Of a stretch of DNA of 64,000 bases, positions 47,622 to 63,181 are shown in pieces. Numbering within the stretch: position 1 is the stretch's first letter; the number at the start of each line of letters is the position of its first letter. Under the pieces are notes generated by a model. That model did no database searches and had not been told where the DNA came from. It saw only the letters and a program-made list of their open reading frames with translations. The DNA is taken from assembly GCA_965215565.1 (NCBI GenBank), contig CBDCDZ010000004.1:2432001-2496000 (forward strand). Direction: 5' to 3'. Origin of the DNA: Trueperaceae bacterium (GTDB taxonomy: Bacteria > Deinococcota > Deinococci > Deinococcales > Trueperaceae). The position numbers were made by a program, and so were the translations under genes.

Positions 47622-48227
47622 TCACTCCACCGGCTTAACGACAACTCGCCTGTCGCGCCCCTCACCAGACGACTCACTCCTGACCGACGGGTCATCGGCG
47701 AGCGTCATGTGAATAACGCGGCGCTCGCCCGCGTTCATCGGGTCAAGCTCAACAGCGAAACCTGTTTTGCGCACCCGCGCCGCCGCTTTGCGCGCCTCAC
47801 CTCTCAACCTGTCGTCGCGGCGCGCCTTGTAACCGCCCACGTCGATGTTAACGCGCACATTGCCCTCTGACTTATCACGGGTCTCATCACGGTTGATGAC
47901 GGCGTTGGTGAGGTACTCCAGAGCCGCTAAGGTGCGCCCGCCGCGCCCGATAATCTTACCGGGATCGCCGCCGGTGATATCTATGATGACTTCGTCTTCG
48001 TCTGCGCGCCTAACTTCAACCGCGTAGCCAGGGTCGATGTTGAGGAGCAGATGGACTAAGAACGATTCGCAGCGCTCCGCCGCGTCGCCTTCGATCACGA
48101 GCGGCGCGACGAAGGGTTGTGAGGGAGCTGATTTGGGTAGTTCGGGCGTGGCAGACTCCTCTTCACCTGTATTGATGCCGAGGTTATCGAGGTACGTATC
48201 CAAATCGTTATTCTTATCGTCAGCCAC
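47622..48227 (-). CDS. jag: Jag/KhpB RNA-binding protein (KH + R3H)
   Basis: IIGRGGRTL.ALEY, ERRVIH, SESSGEG..R; follows yidC. Confidence 0.92.
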   Translation of the reverse strand: MADDKNNDLDTYLDNLGINTGEEESATPELPKSAPSQPFVAPLVIEGDAAERCESFLVHLLLNIDPGYAVEVRRADEDEVIIDITGGDPGKIIGRGGRTLAALEYLTNAVINRDETRDKSEGNVRVNIDVGGYKARRDDRLRGEARKAAARVRKTGFAVELDPMNAGERRVIHMTLADDPSVRSESSGEGRDRRVVVKPVE

Positions 48228-48297
48228 ACTAGCTCCTTAACATTGGTTTACAGGATGATAGATAATGCTTCGTTTTGACCTTTTGCGCTCTCTTTCG

Positions 48298-49887
48298 TTA
48301 CTTTGCTTTCGCCTGAGCGGTCGCAGCGGGGGGCGTAGACGTACGCTTAATGAGGAACTGCTGGAAGACTTGCACGACCATTGAGGTGATGAGGTAGAGC
48401 GTCACACCAGCGGGAAAGTTGAAGATGAAAAAGACGAACACACCGCTCATCAGGAGTTGCTGGCGAAGCGACTGCATGTTACCTTGCGCCGATACGAACG
48501 CTTGGCCCGCCATCACCACGACGTAGAGGAGCGGCAAGATGTAGTACGGATCGTTGAGACCCAAGTCGGGAATCCACAAAAAACCCTCGTTGAATTCGAA
48601 GTTGATAAAAACGCGCCACAAGATGATGAAGATAGGCATCTGCACAAGAATCGGCAAGCAGCCCCCCGCCGGGTTGACGCCCGCTTCCTTGTAGAGTTTC
48701 ATCGTTTCTTCAGTGAGCTTTTCGCGGTTGTCCTTATGTTTCTTTTGCAAGGTCTGCAGCTTGGGCTGAAGCTGCTGCATCCCCATCATCGACTTTGTCT
48801 GCGTGGCGATAAGCGGCCACACCAAGATGCGAAAGAGGAGCGTCAGCACGATAATGGAGAGTCCCCAGTTGCCGACGACGCCGTGAATCGTCTCTAACGC
48901 GACGACAATGCCCAGTGAGACGCGCCCTAAGATGTTGGGTCTGAAGAGGCCGGGCAAGTCGAGATAGTTCTCTTGCAGATAGCGCACCATCTCATTAGGG
49001 CCGCCGTACACCTCTAAGTCTAAAGTTACAGAGGCGTTCGCTTGACTTGGCAGCGTCTTAGCCAGCGCGATCTGACGCCCTGAGCGCGGCAGAGCGGCGA
49101 GGTCCTGTCCGCCTGCGCCTTCGGCGTTCGGATCAGGGCGCATAACGATGGCGAAGGCGCGGTTGTTGTTGTTGTTTTGTAGCGAGATGTAAGAGGGATT
49201 CTGGACGGGCTGCGACACGGGGTTGAGCGTAAAGTTTTCGCCTTGCCCTATTTTTATGACGGGCGTATTTTGTCGTCCGATACCGGAATAGGCGTACTGC
49301 ACCTCTACGGGCTCTTCGCCCGCCTCGGCGCGAGTAACGGTAACCTCTACATCTACCGAATTTCTGGCTGAGCTGACTAGAATGGTCTTTTCGACTGCGT
49401 AGCCGTTCGTCTGGTAGGAAAACTCGCCTAAGAGCGCGTCTTCGCCGTTACGCTCGACCTCTTGCCAGTTGCTCTCGGCGGTTTCGGGCTCGAGCCTCTC
49501 CCCGCCTACAAAAACCGCACCTCCAGGTATTTGCGCGGTGTACGGAATGAGGTTTTGGTTGTTGTTGAGGTTGTAGTTACCGCTGAAGTCTTGCCCGCGC
49601 TGCTGCTTAGCGAAAAGCGCAACGACTTCGCCGCTCTCGTCGAAGATATAGTCGACGCTCTTCGTGGTGATGAGCTTGAGGTCTTGACCTCTTACGTCGC
49701 ACCAAAATGAGCTAGGGTTTGGGGTGCAAAGCTCATCCAACTCTTCCGCGTTGCTAAACTGCGAGGCGCTAAAATCCTGGATACCGAACGTAACCCTGGC
49801 AAACGCAAACGAAACCAGAACGAGCGCGGCGAGGAGCGCGAGCGCCGAAAATACTTTACCTTTCAAAATTCCTCCGGGTGAGGGCAC
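48298..49887 (-). CDS. yidC: Membrane protein insertase YidC
   Basis: NWGLSII.LT, LYKEAGVNPAGGCLP, DPYYILP, PAGV.LY; operon context; start uncertain. Confidence 0.93.
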   Translation of the reverse strand: MPSPGGILKGKVFSALALLAALVLVSFAFARVTFGIQDFSASQFSNAEELDELCTPNPSSFWCDVRGQDLKLITTKSVDYIFDESGEVVALFAKQQRGQDFSGNYNLNNNQNLIPYTAQIPGGAVFVGGERLEPETAESNWQEVERNGEDALLGEFSYQTNGYAVEKTILVSSARNSVDVEVTVTRAEAGEEPVEVQYAYSGIGRQNTPVIKIGQGENFTLNPVSQPVQNPSYISLQNNNNNRAFAIVMRPDPNAEGAGGQDLAALPRSGRQIALAKTLPSQANASVTLDLEVYGGPNEMVRYLQENYLDLPGLFRPNILGRVSLGIVVALETIHGVVGNWGLSIIVLTLLFRILVWPLIATQTKSMMGMQQLQPKLQTLQKKHKDNREKLTEETMKLYKEAGVNPAGGCLPILVQMPIFIILWRVFINFEFNEGFLWIPDLGLNDPYYILPLLYVVVMAGQAFVSAQGNMQSLRQQLLMSGVFVFFIFNFPAGVTLYLITSMVVQVFQQFLIKRTSTPPAATAQAKAK

Positions 49888-49950
49888 GCCTTTGACGTGT
49901 CACCTTATGCGTGATGTTTCCCTCAGCGTTGTTTCGTACTGGGTGGCGGC

Positions 49951-50235
49951 TCACTTCGCGTCTCTCGAGGTGTGACCTACTTGGGTTGGAACGGGATCGA
50001 GCCCGCCAGGGTGAAACGGATGGCATTTGAGCACGCGCTTCAGCGCCAGATAGCTTCCTTTAAGGACACCGTGCCGCACAACCGCGTCCACGGCGTACTT
50101 GCTACACGTCGGGTGAAAGCGGCAGCTCGGACTTGCCTTGAGCGGTGACAAAAAGCGGCGGTATGTGCGCAGCGGAAGCAGCGCGAGTTGCTGCGCGAAC
50201 GACAGCTTGGTAGGAGCTTTCGCATCCTCTCTCAC
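49951..50235 (-). CDS. yidD: Membrane protein insertion efficiency factor
   Basis: [21 protein letters not shown]. Confidence 0.93.
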
Positions 50236-50570
50236 AGCGCTCCGCCCTTTTTGAGCGCGTAACGCAGCGCATCTTTGAGCTGCCAGTAGTCCGCGTCAGC
50301 GGCAACGGGTCTCGCGATGACGACGAGGTCGAAAGTTTTAGAAACCTTACCTTCTACAGTGAGCGCCCGAAGTGCCTCGCGTAGACGGCGGCGCACGCGG
50401 TTTCTCACCACGGCGTTGCCGACTTTTTTCGACACGACGATACCGACGCGCACACACGTTTCGCGGTTGCCGCGCCAGCGGAGGCTCAAAAGCTTTGCGT
50501 GCCCCGCCTTGCCGCGCCGCATCCTCTGAAACGCGCGGTCACCCTTCAAGGAGCAGACCGGCGTCACCAT
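50232..50570 (-). CDS. rnpA: Ribonuclease P protein component
   Basis: [24 protein letters not shown]. Confidence 0.95.
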
Positions 50571-50575
50571 AAGGG

Positions 50576-50719
50576 TTACTCGTCAGAGACGGAGAGCTTG
50601 GTGCGGCCTTTGGCGCGGCGGCGCTTAATGATGTTGCGGCCCGTCGAGGTCTTCATGCGAGCGCGGAAGCCGTGCGTCTTGGCACGCTTGCGCTTGTTGG
50701 GTTGATAGGTTCTTTTCAT
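50576..50719 (-). CDS. rpmH: 50S ribosomal protein L34
   Basis: [29 protein letters not shown]. Confidence 0.97.
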
Positions 50720-51149
50720 CTCATTCCTCCAGTAGGGTGGGTGCGGGTTAAAGGGCGCAACTCCCAAGTACGCCGAGGAACCATGCGCCGACAAGACGTA
50801 AGAGCATACCATAGGTAGGGGTGTGGACGCTAGGCATGTCGATGCAAAGCTCGAACCAAGTTTGGCGCAATCAAGGACCGCTCGCCGACGCCCTAAACGA
50901 AGTGACGTCCTAAAATGGATACAAAAGCAGCTTCCTCAACTCATCTTTTAGCTCGCCTAGCAGAAGGCGAAACTCTTCGCATGAGGCCAAGTCTGCGCTT
51001 CGTTCTTCAGCGTGGACGGGGCGATGGACGTGCTCTGTTCGAGTCCCGCCACCCCGCTTCAAAACGGACCCCCTCTCGGTGTGACGAATGCACATCTCCC
51101 GCGCCCATTACGCGCTACACTTACTTCAAGTTCAGGGAGACCTGAACGA

Positions 51150-51223
51150 CTTCGGAAGCGATGACGTTTGTTCTGTATCTGGGCGCTTGGAACAAGCTGA
51201 GCTAGTAGCGCACCCGGCCGAGG
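51150..51223 (+). ncRNA. c-di-GMP-II riboswitch aptamer 1 (variant junction GCACCCG)
   Basis: CGGAAGCGATGA...TGGGCGCTTG...GAGCTAGTAGCGCACCCGGCCG; P1 CTTCGG/CCGAGG, kink-turn, pseudoknot GCGCT/AGCGC. Confidence 0.85.
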
Positions 51224-51331
51224 GTGAACAACTCGCTTTTCACAAAGAAGTTTAGCCTCGGGCAAACTTCAATCTGCGAACCTCACTCGAGCAGCCGGGC
51301 TAAGTGCCCCTGGTCGAGCGTTTCTTATGGC

Positions 51332-51407
51332 GTTCGGAGGCGATGAACCGATTCTCCCTATTTGGGCATCATGGGACTCGGGGAGCCAGTGATGCAACCG
51401 GCCGAAC
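51332..51407 (+). ncRNA. c-di-GMP-II riboswitch aptamer 2
   Basis: CGGAGGCGATGA...TTGGGCATCATG...GAGCCAGTGATGCAACCGGCCG; compensatory pairs GGC/GCC and GCATCA/TGATGC relative to the other copies. Confidence 0.88.
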
Positions 51408-51415
51408 TTAGGGTA

Positions 51416-51524
51416 TATCGGTTTCACAGTTACTGAGCTTGAATCACGCAGATATCATCTTTGAATATGCGTGCTAAGCCGTGCTTTTTCGACAGAGCGC
51501 GTCCGTAACCAGATGATACCTGCT
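51416..51524 (+). mobile_element. TAGCAG/CTGCTA miniature repeat element, copy 6 (degenerate left end)
   Basis: ACTGAGCTTGAATCACGC (shared with 59202-59292), GCAGATATCATC..GCGTGCTA, ACCAGATGATACCTGCT. Confidence 0.75.
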
Positions 51525-51565
51525 CTACAAGGTGGTTGTGTCCATTCCACGAAAGGGTGGTTTGG

Positions 51566-52039
51566 ATGCGCAAAAGATTTTTATTTTTCGTTCTCGTAGT
51601 TTTAGGTTTAGCCAACGTCGCAGCGGCGCAAAGAAGTAGCAGCCACGACGTTAGCCTCAGCATCCCCAACATTCTCAGACTCAAAATTGACGATAGCGCG
51701 ACTCAAGACCGAGCGGACGTCGGTATCGACATTCGCGTGTCGAGCGGCGCGTTCGAAATCGCGCCTGCGGGTAGCAGCGTCCGGGTCATGGCGAACAGCG
51801 CGTGGCAGCTCTCCGCGAGCTACGTCCCAGCGAGCGAAGCGGACGCGGCGGCGCAGCTTATGTGGCGAGCCGAAGCGGATGAAAGCGGCTGGGAGCGCTT
51901 CACCTCTTATCCGCAGATCGTCGAACGCGGCGAGAATACGAGGGGCTGGCAGAATTTTGATCTTCGCTACGGGCTCCAGAGCCTACCAGCGGACGGGCAC
52001 TACCAGGGTACGGTGACCTATACGGTGACGCGCCCCTAA
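51566..52039 (+). CDS. Secreted pilin-like subunit 1
   Basis: Signal peptide; SHDVSLSIP N-terminal strand; C-terminal GHYQGTVTYTVTRP. Confidence 0.7.
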   Translation: MRKRFLFFVLVVLGLANVAAAQRSSSHDVSLSIPNILRLKIDDSATQDRADVGIDIRVSSGAFEIAPAGSSVRVMANSAWQLSASYVPASEADAAAQLMWRAEADESGWERFTSYPQIVERGENTRGWQNFDLRYGLQSLPADGHYQGTVTYTVTRP

Positions 52040-52419
52040 TAAGGTACTACCCAGAATTTTGAATAGAAGCGCGAGGAGCTAAGCTCTATCTAAGCTTAGC
52101 CCCTTCTCGAGACCTCTTCTCGAAACTTATACCTCTATCATCGGGGCAACCCTTTCACGCTCCAAGGTGCATAGCGTTTCGCAAGACCTTCTTGAGACGC
52201 TACAACCTCTTGCAAATTGAGCTAGCTAAGGCGCTCCGAACGCGGCGACTTTTCGTGATATTTTTACACCTTTGAGCGGTTCCCTTCCGCGCGAACTTAG
52301 TGGAGTTTTTAACGTCTCTGAGCCACTTTCTTGTCAGAATTTTGTAAGAGCAAATCCGTATACTAATTTTAGTTAAACGCTCCTCCGCAACCCCAAATTC
52401 ACCCACGCGGAGGGTTCCT

Positions 52420-52492
52420 TTCGGAAGCGATGAAGTCTTGACCCGTACTTGGGCGCTTGGGCAAGATGGAGCTAGTAGCGCAACCGGCCGAA
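52420..52492 (+). ncRNA. c-di-GMP-II riboswitch aptamer 3
   Basis: CGGAAGCGATGA...TTGGGCGCTTG...GAGCTAGTAGCGCAACCGGCCG; ends about 9 nt before the SD of the 52513 gene. Confidence 0.92.
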
Positions 52493-52512
52493 CCTATTCC
52501 GGGAGGAATACA

Positions 52513-53040
52513 ATGAAGAAAGTTTTTGGTTTACTCGCAGCCGCAGCCGTCCTCAGCACCAGCGTCGCCTTTGCTCAAGAGCAGCAGAGCCACGAAGTCG
52601 AGATTAAAATCCCGGACGTCTTAGGTATCCGCTTGACGAATGGAAACAGCAACGACGCAGTCGCTGAACCCACCGCTGTCTCCTTCATCTTAAATGACGG
52701 TCAGCTATCGTTCGACGGCGGTACGTTTAATCCAAGCAACTTAGGTGAGGGTAACTGGGACGACGTCAAGGTGTTCTCTAACCAATCCGGCTTCGACGTC
52801 AAGGTAGGCGTTGCGAACGGTCTCAGCTTCGACTGGACCAAAGTATCGGTTGCAGCAGACGGCTTAGCCAGCCCGTTCACCTTAGGCGCACTCAACCCTA
52901 ACATCATCACGAGTGCCGCAAAGACAAATGCGTGGACGAGCTTAGGCTTCGGTCCCGACGACTTCAAGCTCACGCTCGACGGCTCTGAAGATGCGGGCGA
53001 CTACAGCACCGAAGTAACCTACACCATCTCCCTTCCTTAA
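52513..53040 (+). CDS. Secreted pilin-like subunit 2 (candidate major subunit)
   Basis: ATG 52513 after GGAGG; signal peptide ending AFA; SHEVEIKIP; LDGSEDAGDYSTEVTYTISLP; own riboswitch and 3' hairpin. Confidence 0.75.
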   Translation: MKKVFGLLAAAAVLSTSVAFAQEQQSHEVEIKIPDVLGIRLTNGNSNDAVAEPTAVSFILNDGQLSFDGGTFNPSNLGEGNWDDVKVFSNQSGFDVKVGVANGLSFDWTKVSVAADGLASPFTLGALNPNIITSAAKTNAWTSLGFGPDDFKLTLDGSEDAGDYSTEVTYTISLP

Positions 53041-53060
53041 AACTAGCTAGATTCAAGGTC

Positions 53061-53083
53061 AGCCGCCGCATCTTGCGGCGGCT
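53061..53083 (+). terminator. GC-rich hairpin after the candidate major subunit (partial terminator or mRNA stabiliser)
   Basis: AGCCGCCGCA-TCT-TGCGGCGGCT with weak U tail. Confidence 0.6.
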
Positions 53084-53110
53084 ATCTTATCGTGAAAGGG
53101 GGAAGCTGTA

Positions 53111-53761
53111 ATGACACAGTTGCCATACGCTCGAGCTAAGCGTCTAAGACTCGCCAGAGCGTTCGCTTGTCTCGTCCTCATCTGCGCCGCACTCCACATG
53201 TCACTCGCCTCCGCGCAACAGGCTGACCATAAGACCGAGGTGTACATACCGAGCTACCTGGGCATCCGTATCATCAATGACGCCGGTGCCGCGCGCGGCT
53301 CGCCCGCGGTCAACTTCGACTACACTTCGGACGTGTCGGCTTACACGGACGCCTACAAAGGACCAGGGTACATAGGCGCTTCGGAGGTCACTGACTTTGC
53401 CGACGTGCAGGTGTCGGTACGTACCGGCTTCGCGTTTCCACTGTGGTACGTAACCGCTCAAGCGTCGCCGCTAGCCTACGAAGGTAGTCAGGGAGGTGCG
53501 GGACTTACTTTGGGAGATATCGAAGTGGTGCGTGGCTCGGTTTCTGGTCTCAACCAAGGAGCAGTCGTAGGGGGGTTAGGGCGTGTATTCGACGCCTGGA
53601 CGCTCGCTGTCAATCCTCAGCCAGTCGCCTATAGCTTTATCGGAACCTACGGATGGCGGTCTCTAGGCTTTAACGGTCTGGACTACCGCGTGGCTGTAGA
53701 CGGCGACGAAGACCCAGGCGAATATTCCACAACGGTGACCTATGCAATTTTCTATCCTTAG
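53111..53761 (+). CDS. Secreted pilin-like subunit 3
   Basis: Signal peptide; DHKTEVYIP; VDGDEDPGEYSTTVTYAIFYP. Confidence 0.7.
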   Translation: MTQLPYARAKRLRLARAFACLVLICAALHMSLASAQQADHKTEVYIPSYLGIRIINDAGAARGSPAVNFDYTSDVSAYTDAYKGPGYIGASEVTDFADVQVSVRTGFAFPLWYVTAQASPLAYEGSQGGAGLTLGDIEVVRGSVSGLNQGAVVGGLGRVFDAWTLAVNPQPVAYSFIGTYGWRSLGFNGLDYRVAVDGDEDPGEYSTTVTYAIFYP

Positions 53762-53765
53762 AGCT

Positions 53766-54545
53766 ATGGTCACCTCTTCCGCGAGAACGCTCGCCTTCTC
53801 CATACTGACGCTGCTCTTGGCTTCTTTTGCCCAAGCGTCCGACATCGGTCTCTCTCCACCTCGTCTCGCTCTCACAGGCAGCCCGGGGCAAACGCTCACC
53901 GAAACCATCATCTTAGTGACGGATAGCTCAGCGCCGCTACAAGTCAGCACGGAGATCAGCGACTGGACGCTCGACGCGACGGGCAACATCACCTTTTTAC
54001 CGGCGAACAGCTTAGAGCATAGCGCCGCCAACTGGATAAGCTTGGAGAGCACGGACTTTCTCTTGGAGCCCGACTCGAGCCGCGAACTGCGCGTCTCCGT
54101 CACGATTCCGCCTGACGCCAAAGGCGGCACCTATCACGACATGGTGTTCTTCCGCGTGGTGCCGCCCGAGTCAGTTCTTTCGGGCGTCGGCGTCGTGACC
54201 ACGACGCGCATCGGTCTGACGGTCTACATCACGGTGGCGGGCTCGGAGCAAAACAGCGCTGAAGTGGTGGACTTTTTTCAGCAGGACGAAGCCTCACTCA
54301 TGCTAGCAGTCGCCAACACGGGCAACACGCTCATGCGCTTGGGTGGCAACGTCGAGCTGCGCGACGAGACGGGCGAGGTTAGGTACACCGTGGAGGTCCC
54401 TGACGTGCCAGTTCTCCGCGACAGCGAGCGCGAGGTCTTACTTCCCTTGCCAGAAGTGGACGCGGGCTTCTACGTCGCTTTAGCGCTGATCCAGGACAGC
54501 CGGGGCGAACTGCTCGTGGCAGAGCTGCCGATCTCGGTTCCGTGA
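53766..54545 (+). CDS. PapD-like / DUF916-like fimbrial chaperone
   Basis: Signal peptide; IGLSPPRL; A.WI.L; V.V.IP.DA..GTY...VFF; V.NTGN...R..G two-Ig-domain pattern. Confidence 0.72.
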   Translation: MVTSSARTLAFSILTLLLASFAQASDIGLSPPRLALTGSPGQTLTETIILVTDSSAPLQVSTEISDWTLDATGNITFLPANSLEHSAANWISLESTDFLLEPDSSRELRVSVTIPPDAKGGTYHDMVFFRVVPPESVLSGVGVVTTTRIGLTVYITVAGSEQNSAEVVDFFQQDEASLMLAVANTGNTLMRLGGNVELRDETGEVRYTVEVPDVPVLRDSEREVLLPLPEVDAGFYVALALIQDSRGELLVAELPISVP

Positions 54546-55465
54546 AGATTGCGGCGAAAAGGCTAAGTGTCTGCTTAGCCTTTTTATGCTTTCTCTGCAC
54601 GCTATGTACGCTGAACCTAGCTGACGCGCAGAGGCTCCGCTTTCGCTCGTCCGGGCTCGTCACCTTCGCGCCGACGAGCGAGGTCTATTTGACGGCGCTG
54701 GGCGGCACCCTCGAGCCCGAATCCTCGAGCCCGGACGTTCGTATGCGCGTCGACAAGAGCCGCCGCTTTACCCTCAGCGTCGAGCCTACGCCTCGTCCGA
54801 GCGGCGCGCCCGAGTTACAGGCGCGCTACACCTTTACGACGAAAAGAGACGGCACGACAGTGACCCCCTGGCTACCGCTCAACGCTCCTTTTCAAAGCAC
54901 CTTTTCAAATATAGATAGACGCATGGACGTAAGTGTGGCGTACCGCGTACGGCTCACGGGTCAAGAGGTCGCGGGCAGCTATACGGTTGCGCTGACGTAC
55001 CGCGCGAACGATTCATCGGTGCGGCACGAGGTCCGCGTGGTCATCCCTACCGCAACGGCGCTGCGCTTAGATACCTCGCTCGTCACGGCGCAGAACGCCT
55101 TGCTCGACTTCGATTACGGCGGCGCGAACCTCAAAGCGTACTTGCGGGCTGTTGAAGCGCGCTCGCCTCTGAGCGCGACAGCGGATAACTTTCGCGCGCT
55201 CGAGGTCTTCAGCAACCACCCCCGGGGCTACACGGTCACAGTCGAAGTTGCGCAGCAAGACATCTCGCCTGGTGGCGACACGCTCGCCGATAGGCTCTAC
55301 CTCGCCGGGCAGCCCGCGAGGGGGCGGCGTTTTGTCAGCACGTCGCCGACGTACGGGTTCGAGCCGCTCATCTCGCCAGATGACTTCGCACTGCGCGTGG
55401 ACGGGCTCGAGGACCCCGGCCGCTATACCTTCCGCCTAACCTACGACGCGCGAGCGAACCCTTAG
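54542..55465 (+). CDS. Two-domain pilin-like protein (candidate tip subunit/adhesin)
   Basis: Signal peptide; two pilin-type C-terminal motifs (LTGQEVAGSYTVALTY and VDGLEDPGRYTFRLTY) with internal RHEVRVVIP strand. Confidence 0.65.
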   Translation: MKIAAKRLSVCLAFLCFLCTLCTLNLADAQRLRFRSSGLVTFAPTSEVYLTALGGTLEPESSSPDVRMRVDKSRRFTLSVEPTPRPSGAPELQARYTFTTKRDGTTVTPWLPLNAPFQSTFSNIDRRMDVSVAYRVRLTGQEVAGSYTVALTYRANDSSVRHEVRVVIPTATALRLDTSLVTAQNALLDFDYGGANLKAYLRAVEARSPLSATADNFRALEVFSNHPRGYTVTVEVAQQDISPGGDTLADRLYLAGQPARGRRFVSTSPTYGFEPLISPDDFALRVDGLEDPGRYTFRLTYDARANP

Positions 55466-55727
55466 GCTCACAAAAATGCCGCTTTATTCCCCGAGAGCGT
55501 CTACTCATGTTCGGGGGATATTCGAACATTTATCAAAAGACGCATAGCAGCCTAACTCAGTGGCTCTATCAAAAGTGGAGCCGAGTCGTCCCGCTCCTTA
55601 GAGGAAACCGAAATGCGCTGAGAGAATGACTGTTTGCCCTTTGCGAGCCCAACGATCCGTTTCCTCTGCATATCATGAACCTCTCAGCTCACCGCCGAGA
55701 AGTCCGCCTCCTACCGCAAGAGGTTCC

Positions 55728-58700
55728 CTAATCCGGCGCGTTCAGCACCCGCACCCTGCGCGTCTGCTCGACTACCGTGCCGTCCTCTCTCGTGGCGAGA
55801 AAGAGAAGGTCGTAGACGGCGTCATCGGCAGCGGCGACGACAGGGAGCTGCGCTTCGTATCGCCCCGGCTCGACTTCGGTGAGTTGCACGTCGCCTAGGG
55901 GGCTTTGCACGCTCACGTCAGCCGCTCCGAAAAGGGGTGTAGCGGAGAGGTCTAAGGCTTCTCCAGCGCGCACCGGACCGTCAGCGGCGGCGTCTAAAAG
56001 TGCGATGTCGGGGTCAATCACGAGCTGGCCCCGGCGGCTCGCCGTTTCAGCGCCGCGCCGCGCGCTGACCTCGAAGGGGTAGACGCCGGGCGGAGTGTCT
56101 TGAGGCACTACGACGCGCCCAAGCCACACATCGCCCCGCAGCGAGAGGCTGCTTGGGCCCGCTGCCGCGCTCACGCTCACCTCGTCCGCGTCGCCTTGAA
56201 CCCTCACGCTGACGAGCGGCGCAGCGCCGGGCGGAACGCGCTCGGTATCCAGCGTGACGCGGCGCACGCGCAGCGCCGACGAGCCGAAACTCCGCGCTCT
56301 AGTGCGGGCGGGCTGCAGCAGAAAGGTGACCTCGGTGACTTCGCCTGCTCGCATCGCGAGTTCGCGCGCGCTTTCGGCTATAAGGATGCTGCCAACAGGA
56401 TAGCTCATGAGTTGCAACGTTCCTTCGCCGGGCAGGAGACCTCTCGCCGAAAAGTTGCCCTGCTCGTCCGTGTTGAGCGAGCGGTAGAGCCCTTCAGGGT
56501 CGACGAGGAGCAGCCGGGCGGCTAAGCCGCGCGCGGGCGTGTCGGCGACGCCGTCCGCATCCGCGTCCTCGAGCACCCGCCCTCTAAGCGCCGCCGTCCG
56601 CACGAGGCGGAAGTCGTGCGTCGCCGTCTCCCTGAGCGCCACCTCCACGGAGACCGCATCCTCGCCCAACAAGCGGTAGGTGATCGGCAGACTTCCTAGC
56701 TCGAGGTTCACCTTATAGGTGCCGGGCGCAACTTCGGCGTGGTAGCGTCCCTCTTTGTCGGTCAGCAGCCTAAAGCGCCCGACTTTCACCTCAGCGCCCG
56801 CGAGCGGACCCGCGTCCGAGCGCACGACGCCCCCCACGCTACCGACGCGGCGACCTCCAGCAAGCTCGCTCACCGCGCGCGGCACGGGGATGTCGAAGGC
56901 GTAGTCGCTCGAGAGAGACAGCCCGAACGTCAAGGGCGCAGTGGCGTCCGCCGCGTAGCTGTAGCTCGCGTTGCCCGCCACGTCGACGCGCCACGGTCCG
57001 CTGTACCAGACCGTTCCTGCGTTGAGCCCTAGCTGCTTTTCGGAGAGGTTCCAGGTGCCGTTGCCAAAGAGCGTAAGCGGCGTGAACGTCGTCTGCAGTT
57101 TGAGGTCAAACTGACCGTCTAGGTGCGCGGTGCGCGGATAGTAGGTCAGATTACCGCCGAAGCTGTAGTAGTCTTCGCGGCTCTGCGACAGGCGCGCCGA
57201 CGCGCCTAAGCCGAGCCCGTCCGCGCCGTACACCACACCGAAGCGCGACTCCGTGCGCCACACTCGGGCGAGAGGTCCGTCGTCATACTGCAGCCTCGCG
57301 AAACCCTGCTGAGAGCCTATCTCTAAGCCTAACGTAAATTCACCGAGCGCAGACGGCACCTCACCGAGAACGGCGTCAAAGATAGAGTCAAGCACCAAAC
57401 GGTCCTGCAGACCGACGCTCCACTGCGCCTCGGTAGCGCTACCAGGGGGCGTCTCGTCTGAGGCGTCCTCACCGTTAGACTCTTCGCCGTCAGACCCTTC
57501 ACTAGAAGGTCCCTCGCTTAGAAACCAGTTGCCGCTGGCGTAGAGGTGCTCGCTCGCCCCATAAAGGTCAAGGCGTGCGGAGAGCGCCGCGTCTTCACCC
57601 AGGAACTGTGCGAGTTTGAACTGGCCCTCGAGCGTCCCTATGGAGGAGACGGTTTCCGCCTCGAGAGACAGATCGAGGGCGTCACCGTAGCGAGCGTTCC
57701 CTGCCAAGCTGAACGTGCCCAGGTCAGCGCCGCCCCGCACGCTGACCTGCACGCCGCCCCTTTCGACGCCGAGCCCGCCCGCCACCGCGACGTCTTCATC
57801 TCGGTACTCGCCCGCCAGATAGCCCGATGCGGTGTCCGTCAGCCCGCCCAACGCGCCCGCTACCGACCAGCGCGGCGCATAATAACTTCCCGACACGCCG
57901 ACGCCCGCTGTCAGACTCAAGCGATAAGGATCACTCGCGCCGCCGCCTAATTTTGCCGTCCAAGCTTCGTGGGTGAGCGAAGCGTAAGAACTCAGCGCGT
58001 CTTTAGCGTCCAGCCTCGCGTTCAAGGTCACGAAGTCGGAGAGGGAGCCCTCCACATTGAGTCCACCTCTCCACCCTTCGGTACCCAAGCTCGCGGAGGC
58101 GTCCGCTGCCAGCGCGAAGGGCGGCGGCTGCGGCGTGCCGAAGCGCGTCACCGAGAGCGTTTTGCGAACCTCCGTACCCTCTCTATCCTGCGCCGTTAAA
58201 ACGAGCGTATAGCGTCCTTCGCGCGGCACCTCGAGCCGCAAATCCAGCCGCTCCTGCGGCGCAAGCTCGCGCTCACGCGCCGCTAAAACCTCGTCTCTTT
58301 GGCGCAGCTCGAGGCGCGCTTGACTCCTCACATTACCCCGGTTGATGAGCGTGACGCTAAACCCCTCACTCAGCACGATTGCCTCGGGCGCTTCTAAATC
58401 CAACGATAAGCGCTCGCTCACGGTGACGCCGGTCTGAGCTTCGCTGCCGCCAAGCTCGAGCGTCACAATATTCTCTGTAAAAGCGGGTGCGTCGTTAGGA
58501 ACAGCTAACGTGAGGGCAACCGGACGGCTCCGCCCCGGCTCCAACGTCAGCGTGCCGGGCTGACGCAAGATTTGCCAGCCCAAAGACGAACGCGCCTCCG
58601 CCTCGACCTTCAGCGACTCCGCTCCCGGCGTCTGCGCGCGCGGAGCTTCTACGCGGAAAACCAGGGTTACGTAGTCACCTGGCGCGGCGAAACGGCTGTT

Positions 58701-58841
58701 GGGCGGCGTTAAGGTAAGAGACCCAGCTTGCGCCGCGCCGACGCCCGCCGAGATGAGAAGCCAAGCTAAGCTAAAAAAAACGAGGACGCGCCGCGCCGCT
58801 ACGCCTCTCCAGAAGAGCGTGACACCGAAAGCGCCCCTCAT
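55728..58841 (-). CDS. Large secreted/outer-membrane protein: Ig-like domains, beta-rich core, CnaB/SdrD-like domains (candidate usher)
   Basis: Signal peptide; central Gly/aromatic alternating beta strands; TDKEGRY and GRVLEDADADG...TDEQGNF prealbumin-like domains; converges on the pilin operon. Confidence 0.55.
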   Translation of the reverse strand: MRGAFGVTLFWRGVAARRVLVFFSLAWLLISAGVGAAQAGSLTLTPPNSRFAAPGDYVTLVFRVEAPRAQTPGAESLKVEAEARSSLGWQILRQPGTLTLEPGRSRPVALTLAVPNDAPAFTENIVTLELGGSEAQTGVTVSERLSLDLEAPEAIVLSEGFSVTLINRGNVRSQARLELRQRDEVLAARERELAPQERLDLRLEVPREGRYTLVLTAQDREGTEVRKTLSVTRFGTPQPPPFALAADASASLGTEGWRGGLNVEGSLSDFVTLNARLDAKDALSSYASLTHEAWTAKLGGGASDPYRLSLTAGVGVSGSYYAPRWSVAGALGGLTDTASGYLAGEYRDEDVAVAGGLGVERGGVQVSVRGGADLGTFSLAGNARYGDALDLSLEAETVSSIGTLEGQFKLAQFLGEDAALSARLDLYGASEHLYASGNWFLSEGPSSEGSDGEESNGEDASDETPPGSATEAQWSVGLQDRLVLDSIFDAVLGEVPSALGEFTLGLEIGSQQGFARLQYDDGPLARVWRTESRFGVVYGADGLGLGASARLSQSREDYYSFGGNLTYYPRTAHLDGQFDLKLQTTFTPLTLFGNGTWNLSEKQLGLNAGTVWYSGPWRVDVAGNASYSYAADATAPLTFGLSLSSDYAFDIPVPRAVSELAGGRRVGSVGGVVRSDAGPLAGAEVKVGRFRLLTDKEGRYHAEVAPGTYKVNLELGSLPITYRLLGEDAVSVEVALRETATHDFRLVRTAALRGRVLEDADADGVADTPARGLAARLLLVDPEGLYRSLNTDEQGNFSARGLLPGEGTLQLMSYPVGSILIAESARELAMRAGEVTEVTFLLQPARTRARSFGSSALRVRRVTLDTERVPPGAAPLVSVRVQGDADEVSVSAAAGPSSLSLRGDVWLGRVVVPQDTPPGVYPFEVSARRGAETASRRGQLVIDPDIALLDAAADGPVRAGEALDLSATPLFGAADVSVQSPLGDVQLTEVEPGRYEAQLPVVAAADDAVYDLLFLATREDGTVVEQTRRVRVLNAPD

Positions 58842-60898: not shown

Positions 60899-63181
60899 CT
60901 ACTCCAAGTAGTCCCTAAACTTCGCCGGATTGCCGAACTCGTCACCTTGCAAGACGTACCACATCATGCCCGAGTCGGAGACGTCGCCACGGATGTTCGC
61001 GTCGTCGATGACCTTACCAACCCAGCGCGTGCCCGCGTCACCCGAGCTTTTCATCCACGCCCACGCCTCTTCGCCCACTGAGGTGCCGAGCCCATTCGCG
61101 CCGTTCTGGTCACGAATTGCTTGAAAGTTGAGCCCAGGAAAGTCGCGCTTGATGTCGGCTAGATTGTAGATATTGTCCGCGTCGTCGTGCGTGTCGTTCC
61201 AGTTCGAATGCGAAATCATCGTGACGTGCTGGAACTTTGAGGGGTCCGCCTGAGCGACACCGCGATAGGCGACGCCGTGCGGCCCGGCGACGACGAAGCA
61301 GAGACGGTTCGTGGCGCTCGAGGCGTTGATCGCCTGCGCGATGCTGTTCACCGAGCCCGAGAGGTCGCGCTGATCGTTGTAAATCCTCGACATGTCGTAG
61401 CCGATGCGCCGCGCGGTCTCCTCGACGGACTCGATCATCTGCTGCTCCATGCTCGGGTTGTTATCGCCCAAGTGCGAGCTGTGGTCCCAGTGGGCTAGAC
61501 GTCCTTGCTGACCTCTTTCGGCGAGGAGCAGCAGGGCCAGCGCAGACGCGCCGATGTCGTCGGGGTCGTGCTGGTTGCCGTCCGAACTCCAGGCGATTCG
61601 TTTGCAGTCGTAGTCTAGCTCGGGACCGAGATTGCCGGGCTCGGGCTGTGGGTCAGGTTGTGGACTTGGTTGTGGATCAGGTGACGCCTCGCCCGCTGCG
61701 GTAGGTCTCCAGAGGCTAGCGTCGTCCCTCTGACCTGTATTCCAAGCCACCTCGCCCGCTGCGACTAGAAAGCCTCGTCCTGCCTCGACGTTGTCGAAAC
61801 GGTAACCGTTTCCTTCCTGGACGACAGTCCAGCGCTTGTCAGCGCCGTCTGGCGCAGCTTCAGCCGTCCAGCGTACATCTCCGTCGGGGCGGGTGTCGAG
61901 CGCACCTCGGCCCGGAAGTTTATTAACGATGAGGTAGCTGCCGCCACCTGCGGGGACAAACTTGAAGTAGCTGTTGTCATCGCGGCTCTCAGCCTCGAGG
62001 AAGAGACCGTTCTCGGCGTCGGTGCTTAAAAGCCCCCCTTGCTGAACGTTCTCGAGGGTGTACCACGTGTCCGTCTGCGGAAATGAACCAGGCTCGGGCG
62101 AATCGACAGGATCAGAGGGCTCGGTAGGACCTGATGGGCCGTCGGCGCAGCGGTTCCTGATGGCGTCCTCTTGGGTAACGGAGTCGTGATAGAGAACGAT
62201 GCGGTCAATCTGATGTCCGTGCGAGCGCCCCGCGAGCTGCATCGTATAGGTGCCGGGTTCGCTAAAGTCGATAGCCATCTCACTCTTCTGGTGATTTTGG
62301 TCCGCTGTTGCTCCATAGTTAAATGAACCCTTCCCATTCCCAAACACCTTGATGAAGCCACCGTAGCTGCCGCCCCCGACCGGACCGAAGCGAGCCGCGT
62401 CCGGGAAGTTGACCCAAGAGTCGTTCGCCTTGTCGCCCGCTACGTCGTCAGGTTGCCGCATCGCCCAGGTAAAGCGGTACGTTCCGACTTGTTGAATTTC
62501 GAGCGCCACATCTACTACATCCGCTGGTTGCCCATTGTTCGCCTCTTTACTGAGCCCAAGCCACGTGGCGTACGCTCCGCCGCTCGCCGCGCCATCATTC
62601 ACAACTTGCCAAGCGCCCGTCAGCGGCAGCGACTCCGCCTCTAGCGTGGTAACCGAACATCCTTCGGGCGCTGGCGAGGGTTCCGGCGTAGGCGCTGGCT
62701 CGCTGGGTTGCCCAGGATTCGGGTCAGGCTGTGCGCCTGCCTCCACCACCTCGAAGCTGAGCTTTTGCGGCGTGCCCGCCTCTCCGCCCGCATTCTCAGA
62801 CGAATAGGGCGTCGCCGTCAGCTCATAAGAGCCCAGCTCCGGCGTCCAATCCATGTAGTCGCCCGCCGTATCGCCCGCTAGGGCATATGGCGCGTCACTT
62901 TCCGTGCGCACATCCTCACCGTTGAGCGTAAAGCGCACGCTGCCCGTCAGGTCCATATTCGCGCGGATGTTGAGTTGCCGCGTCGGTAGAGCGCTTAACT
63001 CGAGCGTCGCCCCTTGCATGATCGGGTCAAAGCCCGCGATGGGCTGATCGCTTCGCGCGTCAATTAGAGTAAAGCTCGAGGCGTTCGTCGGGTCTAGCCC
63101 ATCTAGCGCAGTCTGCTGGCACGCGAGCAATCCCAGCGCGATGAGCAAAAACGCTGCGAGAGGTGTGAAAACCCTACGCAT
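60899..63181 (-). CDS. Multidomain lipoprotein: Ig-like, CBM-like, beta-trefoil-like and nucleoside-hydrolase-like domains
   Basis: Lipobox LLAC; four domains separated by Pro/Glu/Gln linkers; C-terminal SSDGNQHDPDDIGA Asp-rich motif. Confidence 0.7.
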   Translation of the reverse strand: MRRVFTPLAAFLLIALGLLACQQTALDGLDPTNASSFTLIDARSDQPIAGFDPIMQGATLELSALPTRQLNIRANMDLTGSVRFTLNGEDVRTESDAPYALAGDTAGDYMDWTPELGSYELTATPYSSENAGGEAGTPQKLSFEVVEAGAQPDPNPGQPSEPAPTPEPSPAPEGCSVTTLEAESLPLTGAWQVVNDGAASGGAYATWLGLSKEANNGQPADVVDVALEIQQVGTYRFTWAMRQPDDVAGDKANDSWVNFPDAARFGPVGGGSYGGFIKVFGNGKGSFNYGATADQNHQKSEMAIDFSEPGTYTMQLAGRSHGHQIDRIVLYHDSVTQEDAIRNRCADGPSGPTEPSDPVDSPEPGSFPQTDTWYTLENVQQGGLLSTDAENGLFLEAESRDDNSYFKFVPAGGGSYLIVNKLPGRGALDTRPDGDVRWTAEAAPDGADKRWTVVQEGNGYRFDNVEAGRGFLVAAGEVAWNTGQRDDASLWRPTAAGEASPDPQPSPQPDPQPEPGNLGPELDYDCKRIAWSSDGNQHDPDDIGASALALLLLAERGQQGRLAHWDHSSHLGDNNPSMEQQMIESVEETARRIGYDMSRIYNDQRDLSGSVNSIAQAINASSATNRLCFVVAGPHGVAYRGVAQADPSKFQHVTMISHSNWNDTHDDADNIYNLADIKRDFPGLNFQAIRDQNGANGLGTSVGEEAWAWMKSSGDAGTRWVGKVIDDANIRGDVSDSGMMWYVLQGDEFGNPAKFRDYLE

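Follow-up and report, generated by a model that had tools for sequence, protein, structure and literature searches.

WxL pili, as the accessible text of a preprint describes them (bioRxiv 10.64898/2026.10.17.759780), assemble by chaperone-guided strand exchange and are confined to Bacillota, with chaperones disjoint from those of the usher pathway; the main text of that preprint mentions neither Deinococcota nor Deinococcus nor Thermus, and its supplements could hold relevant sequences. Archaic chaperone-usher systems occur in Deinococcus-Thermus, according to the accessible parts of two papers (PMC4654587, PMC10104325). Donor-strand pilins with PapD-like chaperones outside Proteobacteria are known from the Pam pili of candidate phyla radiation (CPR) bacteria (PMC13278184, accessible text). 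Here we describe a locus from a Trueperaceae bacterium of the phylum Deinococcota (assembly GCA_965215565.1, contig CBDCDZ010000004.1, positions 2,432,001 to 2,496,000; the whole stretch of 64,000 nucleotides is called the window). This locus probably builds a donor-strand pilus from a chaperone, pilin-like subunits and an usher-like outer-membrane barrel, with the major subunit switched by cyclic di-GMP (c-di-GMP). By the features tested, the system is outside every defined chaperone-usher clade and outside the WxL pili; as far as models and genomics go, its mode of action is probably that of a chaperone-usher pilus. We found no description of it in the literature searched, most subscription papers being beyond reach.

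Six open reading frames (ORFs) were confirmed, those for proteins of 157, 175, 216, 259 and 307 amino acids (aa) on the forward strand and a convergent one of 1037 aa on the reverse strand. The forward genes encode subunit A (P0001, 157 aa, 51566-52039), short, pilin-like and likely minor; subunit B (P0002, 175 aa, 52513-53040), likely the major pilin; subunit C (P0003, 216 aa, 53111-53761), pilin-like and likely a minor or adaptor subunit; a two-domain secreted chaperone (P0004, 259 aa, 53766-54545); and the two-domain subunit E (P0005, 307 aa, 54542-55465), likely the tip or initiator. The reverse-strand gene (P0006, 1037 aa, 55728-58841) encodes an usher-like protein modelled as a pair of immunoglobulin-like (Ig) domains, a barrel and, at the C-terminus, four more Ig-like domains. 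In Pfam and NCBIfam none of the six proteins matched a family of pilins, PapD chaperones or ushers. The locus is present in named Deinococcus isolates and lies on a Deinococcus plasmid, where four of four genes are annotated as hypothetical, much as the original prediction had expected.

In the mechanism that we propose, the secreted chaperone would complete the fold of each subunit with its own G1 strand, and at the outer-membrane barrel the subunits would swap the chaperone strand for the N-terminal strand of the next subunit. The barrel would likely act as the usher, with chaperone-subunit complexes docking on the Ig domains of the barrel protein and secretion proceeding through the barrel. 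Subunit E would be assembled first, as the tip, with C and A as minor subunits and B as the shaft; translation of subunit B, likely the major one, would probably be turned on by c-di-GMP, and the product may serve in surface attachment.

With alternate (CFA/I: CfaA, CfaB, CfaC, CfaE) and archaic (Csu, CupE) pili the system shares subunits that are exported by Sec and have a strand at the N-terminus and an acceptor strand at the end, a soluble two-domain chaperone predicted to donate its G1 strand in parallel and to contact the first strand of the subunit, and a large modelled outer-membrane barrel followed by Ig-like domains; its best fold matches are CfaE/CfaB. It differs from them in having no SCPU, PapD_N or usher Pfam matches and no pilin disulfide, in a predicted barrel of ~26 strands with a chaperone-like N-terminal module and without an inserted plug, in a likely tip whose two pilin-like domains are joined through a donor strand that acts in cis, and in riboswitch control. 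With the WxL (Elr) pilus of Bacillota, whose chaperone ElrE is a WxLIP (DUF916-DUF3324) protein, it shares chaperone homology and, as modelled, chaperone-primed donor-strand exchange. Unlike in that pilus, the chaperone appears from its sequence to have no C-terminal membrane helix, the subunits have no Pfam WxL match, and a barrel gene stands in place of the sortase anchor; no sortase or LPxTG gene was noticed in the locus, and the genome was not searched for one. Pam chaperones, compared by description and not by sequence, are membrane-anchored, and Pam pili are reported from CPR bacteria alone and have no outer membrane or usher (PMC13278184, accessible text).

The claim of four secreted paralogues held up when a pilin profile was built from other genomes only, with the window rows left out: out of 18,599 ORFs in all six frames of the genome, the four window paralogues were the only clear matches (E-values 3e-38 to 3e-21), the next-best ORF having an E-value of 0.068. 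An iterated subunit profile had drifted into chaperones via signal peptides and was replaced by mature-chain alignments. An N-terminal strand had been proposed for all four paralogues; we observed it in subunits A-C, while the strand RHEVRVVIP lies in the middle of subunit E, where it separates two pilin-like domains (residues 132-140 of the mature chain). Similarly, the C-terminal motif DG.ED with G.Y was found in full in three of the four paralogues, subunit A having just G.Y...VTY...P.

AlphaFold2 modelled the mature chain of subunit E with a mean predicted local distance difference test (pLDDT) of 93.7 and a predicted template modelling score (pTM) of 0.85 from an alignment of 49 rows. In the model the last strand of domain 1 (residues 116-126) turns directly into strand 129-139, which has the H-x-V-x-I-P pattern seen at the start of subunits A-C and is kept, at 55013-55045, in 11 of 11 aligned sequences; domain 1 itself has no donor strand at its N-terminus. 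Residues 1-141 matched dscCfaE, an engineered donor-strand-complemented pilin domain (Z-score 10.4, root-mean-square deviation (rmsd) 2.6, 124 residues aligned), and the whole chain matched a fusion of CfaE with CfaB, also engineered (Z 10.1, rmsd 5.5, 239 aligned). CupB6 followed (Z 8.4), and then self-complemented FimA, CsuA/B, CooA and MyfA (Z 6.7-7.7) amid unrelated Ig-like proteins. The fibre subunits FimG (6e14_G), CS20 and TasA, which carry no added strand, aligned to residues 1-128 only. Tip adhesins of chaperone-usher pili carry a receptor-binding domain at the N-terminus; for domain 1 of subunit E, pilin domains were best (Z 10.4), with F17G lectin domains also matching (Z 6.3-6.5). 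Thus, the donor-strand structure of the subunits, which the original prediction put forward as a test, is supported by the likeness of the subunit E model to donor-strand-complemented pilins. We predict that RHEVRVVIP, the internal strand, completes domain 1 in cis, and infer that subunit E may be a natural self-complemented fusion, able to accept and not to donate a strand; a subunit of this kind would therefore likely start the fibre at the tip. In the models, the subunits have Ig folds that need a donor strand to be complete.

It could be argued that each paralogue is a secreted Ig-like protein that folds fully on its own and has a generic likeness to pilins, given that the subunit profile had no match among PDB sequences, that the subunits have no Pfam match and that Ig-like folds easily give middling Z-scores. 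We regard this as highly improbable, since the boundaries of the fold matches track the donor strand and since the complex modelled for chaperone and subunit B has parallel strand donation and a free subunit N-terminus. That complex scored 0.88 against 0.28 for the best control, with a partner pLDDT of at least 80, and the runs agreed in at least 98% of contacts. Chaperone residues 121-128 pair in the same direction with residues 148-153 of subunit B, the contacts rising together (122-149, 125-151, 126-152, 128-153); chaperone residues 3-6 touch residues 16-18 of subunit B, while its mature residues 1-12, the predicted donor strand, lie outside the interface. The chaperone is thus predicted to donate its G1 strand parallel to the last strand of the subunit.

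The chaperone had been called PapD-like. The modelled parallel donation agrees with this, whereas the sequence relations point elsewhere: PapD_N (PF00345) was found in none of 134 members of the chaperone family at an E-value of 0.01 or below and nowhere in the genome, and the closest solved relative is a WxLIP protein, EfmWxLIP1 (9i25, 9i1y), which gave the sole significant PDB matches of the chaperone profile (E-value 5e-7). Against the same profile a DUF916-annotated actinobacterial protein scored 71 bits and three sigma-type PapD proteins, the weaker kin, 24-43 bits. Of the two domain families of WxLIP proteins, PF06030 gave weak matches in eight of the 134 members (best E-value 9e-4) and PF11797 none, so that the pair did not occur. 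A C-terminal membrane helix was not seen when the sequence was read by eye with no predictor; the chain has a short strand-like end. The family is large, with 24,520 clusters at an E-value of 0.001 or below and 1,454 at 1e-30 or below, and among its top 25 matches two passed the WxLIP cut-off and none matched PapD_N. In metagenome contigs L092-L096, which belong to clusters with members named Aerophobetes, doubled versions (~530 aa) come after small genes for secreted pilin-like proteins and before a pair of secretin genes; when metagenomes were scanned with a distant chaperone, no adjoining barrel was found. From such gene neighbourhoods, the exit route of the chaperone family appears to be modular.

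No Pfam match to SCPU (PF05229) or to the WxL domain (PF13731) was found for the window subunits, and when the subunit profile was compared by hhalign with a single WxL-like pilin and a single SCPU pilin, the probabilities were below 1% each (0.6% for the WxL-like one), and therefore sequence cannot tell which pilin family is nearer. WxL chains were absent from the top 50 fold matches of subunit E, which excludes nothing, and an atlas neighbour at 0.89 has 20% WxL members, which is a lead only.

One could also suppose that the locus belongs, as a strongly diverged member, to the archaic or alternate families of chaperone-usher systems that the phylum is already reported to have. The best fold matches of subunit E, alternate-pathway CFA/I pilins, would fit such an origin, as would the scores of 24-43 bits of sigma-type PapD proteins and the archaic systems recorded in Deinococcus-Thermus (PMC4654587, accessible part). 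We consider this very unlikely. The DUF916 protein scored higher, the mature subunits A, B and C of the window have no cysteines (and only two of 30 aligned subunits have two or more), and the modelled barrel has ~26 strands with no inserted plug. Moreover, the archaic systems of the phylum are separate loci with SCPU, PapD_N and PF00577, and identity with them was rejected on this ground. All the PF00577 loci that we opened (L081, L082 and L085) were ordinary archaic chaperone-usher loci with SCPU, PapD_N and usher matches, one of the three weakly, and two genomes (G113 and G150) carry both the archaic and the atypical system.

The original prediction saw the convergent 1037-aa protein as the usher. 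This stands in so far as the protein models as a large barrel with FimD as the top Foldseek match (E-value 1.7e-13) and shares with FimD the order of barrel, then Ig domains; it is not a PF00577 protein, and no PF00577 usher was found in the genome. The mature protein of 998 residues was modelled with a pLDDT of 87.6 as two N-terminal Ig domains (58146-58724), the barrel (56886-58115) and the C-terminal Ig-like domains, which resemble SdrD-B/Cna surface-protein repeats. Counted from the secondary structure of the model, the barrel has 26 consecutive strands (residues 204-613) and no inserted domain; by model, the 24-strand barrel with internal plug that is typical for ushers was not found. The fold shows no more than a barrel of large size, and it is the context that speaks for an usher role. 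The N-terminal Ig pair aligned with the chaperone of the locus over 192 columns (probability 97.8%, E-value 1e-12), without the long donor loop. Since Ig motifs are widespread, capture of a chaperone by the large protein is a hypothesis. Matches to plugged transporters begin at model residues 11-15, a hint that the first domain may sit in the barrel lumen.

We observed that the genes travel together across the phylum, as the original prediction required. A scan of genome contigs (genome_contigs) gave one locus. The chaperone alone was matched in 35 of 61 relatives, and its profile in 145 of 301 phylum genomes from all five families sampled (E-value 1e-8 or below), the weakest few being sigma-type PapD proteins. 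The profile of the large protein matched 58 of 151 genomes at an E-value of 1e-30 or below, while in a phylum sample of equal size PF00577 gave eight matches, four of them over the cut-off. From 47 match rows of the search in relatives we took 40 chaperone regions: a barrel gene lay within ~8 kb in 34 (16 of them outside the set used to build the profile, two of those partial), and a subunit was found at an E-value below 1e-3 in 31. The six regions without a barrel include three that end within 2.3 kb, one with none detected and two with the barrel elsewhere, in one case (G024) on another contig. Related genomes are not independent, and therefore these counts are descriptive.

It is possible that the donor-strand chains are real and that the barrel is an anchor or display platform, or that the product is a short oligomer or a structure associated with the envelope or S-layer. 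The barrel has neither usher sequence signatures nor an inserted plug, its C-terminal domains look like SdrD-B/Cna repeats and its gene is sometimes unlinked, all of which would suit a platform. We still hold such an arrangement to be improbable, given the linkage of barrel and chaperone in 34 of the 40 loci, the N-terminal module that is a paralogue of the locus chaperone and the FimD-like domain order.

The three c-di-GMP-II aptamers of the original prediction were found with Rfam model RF01786, well over its gathering score of 53.5 bits, and all three match model positions 1-84. Aptamer 1 (51145-51228, 74.3 bits), which is conserved in three related loci (L021, L022, L023), and aptamer 2 (51327-51412, 66.5 bits) stand in tandem before the subunit A gene, aptamer 2 being the proximal one; aptamer 3 (52414-52498, 64.8 bits) lies directly before the subunit B gene. 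All of them are on the forward strand and make up three of the four matches over the cut-off in the genome, which also holds 33 GGDEF matches. That all three gate the genes was claimed as well; covariation backs this for the third switch and not for the other two. The 5′ strand of the P1 helix of aptamer 3 can pair over 11 bp with the ribosome-binding site instead (52414-52424 with 52499-52509, forward strand). In seven orthologous leaders 89.6% of the cells of this alternative helix were paired, five of its 11 pairs had two-sided changes, and its covariation was 0.43 as compared with 0.30 when shuffled and at most 0.24 when slid, a value inflated by relatedness and by the helix having been drawn from the same seven sequences. 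Unconstrained folding hid the ribosome-binding site in six of the seven leaders (unpaired at most 0.14); with P1 forced, the unpaired value rose to 0.59-0.89 over the 4-5 bases that were scored. Since the helix that masks the ribosome-binding site covaries, aptamer 3 is likely a translational ON switch, a polarity inferred from folding and covariation. The aptamer class stands before adhesion-type surface genes with ON logic in Clostridioides difficile too (type IV pili, adhesins; PMC11477304, accessible text); those switches are transcriptional, whereas switch 3 likely works at the ribosome-binding site; for the tandem pair the sign may be the opposite one.

Before subunit A, the start codon is buried in a conserved hairpin (51538-51569, within the region 51534-51569, forward strand), with 95.5% of cells paired and a two-sided change at two of 11 pairs in six sequences. 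The element 51534-51541, which overlaps this hairpin, is complementary to 51392-51399 in aptamer 2 (duplex of -15 to -22 kcal/mol, without shuffle control). Hairpin and complement would suit an OFF switch. Equilibrium folding gave no switching of this hairpin, the start codon being unpaired at most 0.02 in both states at five of six loci, with no start found in a seventh. Five loci have a c-di-GMP-II-GAG variant instead of the standard aptamer ahead of the gene for the likely major subunit (L030:7413-7500, L033:7368-7456, L036:7338-7424, L040:5263-5350, L050:9831-9917); four GAG variants showed no switching in folding, and in three of these loci a standard aptamer heads the gene of a subunit A homologue that is transcribed divergently. 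The subunit B gene is followed by a hairpin of -22 kcal/mol (53056-53087, forward strand), which likely steps down expression of the genes downstream. Subunit B is likely the shaft because it has a riboswitch of its own and this hairpin after its gene. No convincing excess of promoters or terminators over shuffles was seen. The fourth aptamer of the genome (G000:C4, near 3833873-3833956) lies ~145 bases before the gene of a 749-aa protein (L086:7480-9729, reverse strand) that has BACON/Ig domains, matches metallopeptidases (M66/M12) weakly and is possibly a co-regulated attachment or release factor.

Several observations weigh against reading the locus as an usher-dependent pilus under c-di-GMP control. 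The Z-scores of 8-10 for subunit E are modest, given that unrelated Ig-like proteins reach 7-8 and CEP192 8.2. The mark that the complex model passed was reached by 116 of 157 solved and by two of 215 mismatched pairs, counts that are rough for our own alignments; the modelled geometry is the donor-strand complementation of usher-pathway and WxL chaperones, and the pass may partly reflect likeness to solved pairs. For the large protein, pTM was 0.60 and the template modelling scores to FimD were ~0.2; the best VIA-align match was MtrB (Z 17.5, rmsd 4.7, 367 residues aligned), FimD (15.2) and PapC (15.0) standing amid TonB-dependent barrels, and none of 40 homologues matched any usher Pfam family at an E-value of 0.01 or below. 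Related chaperones stand beside secretins (L092-L094), and the chaperone family therefore does not require this barrel. In one genome (G001) the barrel gene is 2.2 Mb away, and in the window it is convergent and outside the riboswitch transcript. Aptamers over the cut-off were found in 15 of 39 regions scanned, leaving 24 without, some cut by contig ends. With P1 of aptamer 3 forced, a hairpin of -4.6 kcal/mol still covers part of the ribosome-binding site, as compared with -17.5 kcal/mol for the alternative duplex. At L050:5360-6445 and G043:C10:70253-71647 the barrel gene is fragmented and has an internal stop; chaperone and subunits look intact, and decay or an assembly error may be the cause.

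As for the surroundings, the locus diverges from a series of genes at window positions 47622-50720, probably rpmH-rnpA-yidD-yidC-jag, a region where dnaA often lies. Two kb from the barrel gene, on the reverse strand at 60899-63181, is a gene for a lipoprotein-like protein of 760 aa, which weakly matches a ricin-type lectin (E-value 8.5e-5); we saw no sign in it of membership in the pilus system.

One could speculate further that this is the main, undescribed pilus pathway of the phylum, bridging WxL and chaperone-usher pili. Such a pathway would combine a WxLIP-type chaperone with an usher that was built independently and has as its N-terminus a captured chaperone copy plugging or gating a 26-strand pore, a naturally self-complemented tip, and riboswitches acting in opposite directions, by which c-di-GMP would increase the shaft subunit and decrease a length-limiting one. 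In this full form the proposal is tentative and rather unlikely.

If the locus does build a donor-strand pilus, a WxL-type chaperone, reported as confined to Bacillota, would also work in diderms with an outer-membrane pore, and the barrel would offer a second usher design for asking which parts of an usher are needed to catalyse strand exchange. Heat-stable versions may then serve as materials. For the phylum itself there would be a direct c-di-GMP output for attachment, and Deinococcota would have a common pilus missed by annotation, with the barrel in 58 of 151 genomes as compared with four carrying a canonical usher over the cut-off.

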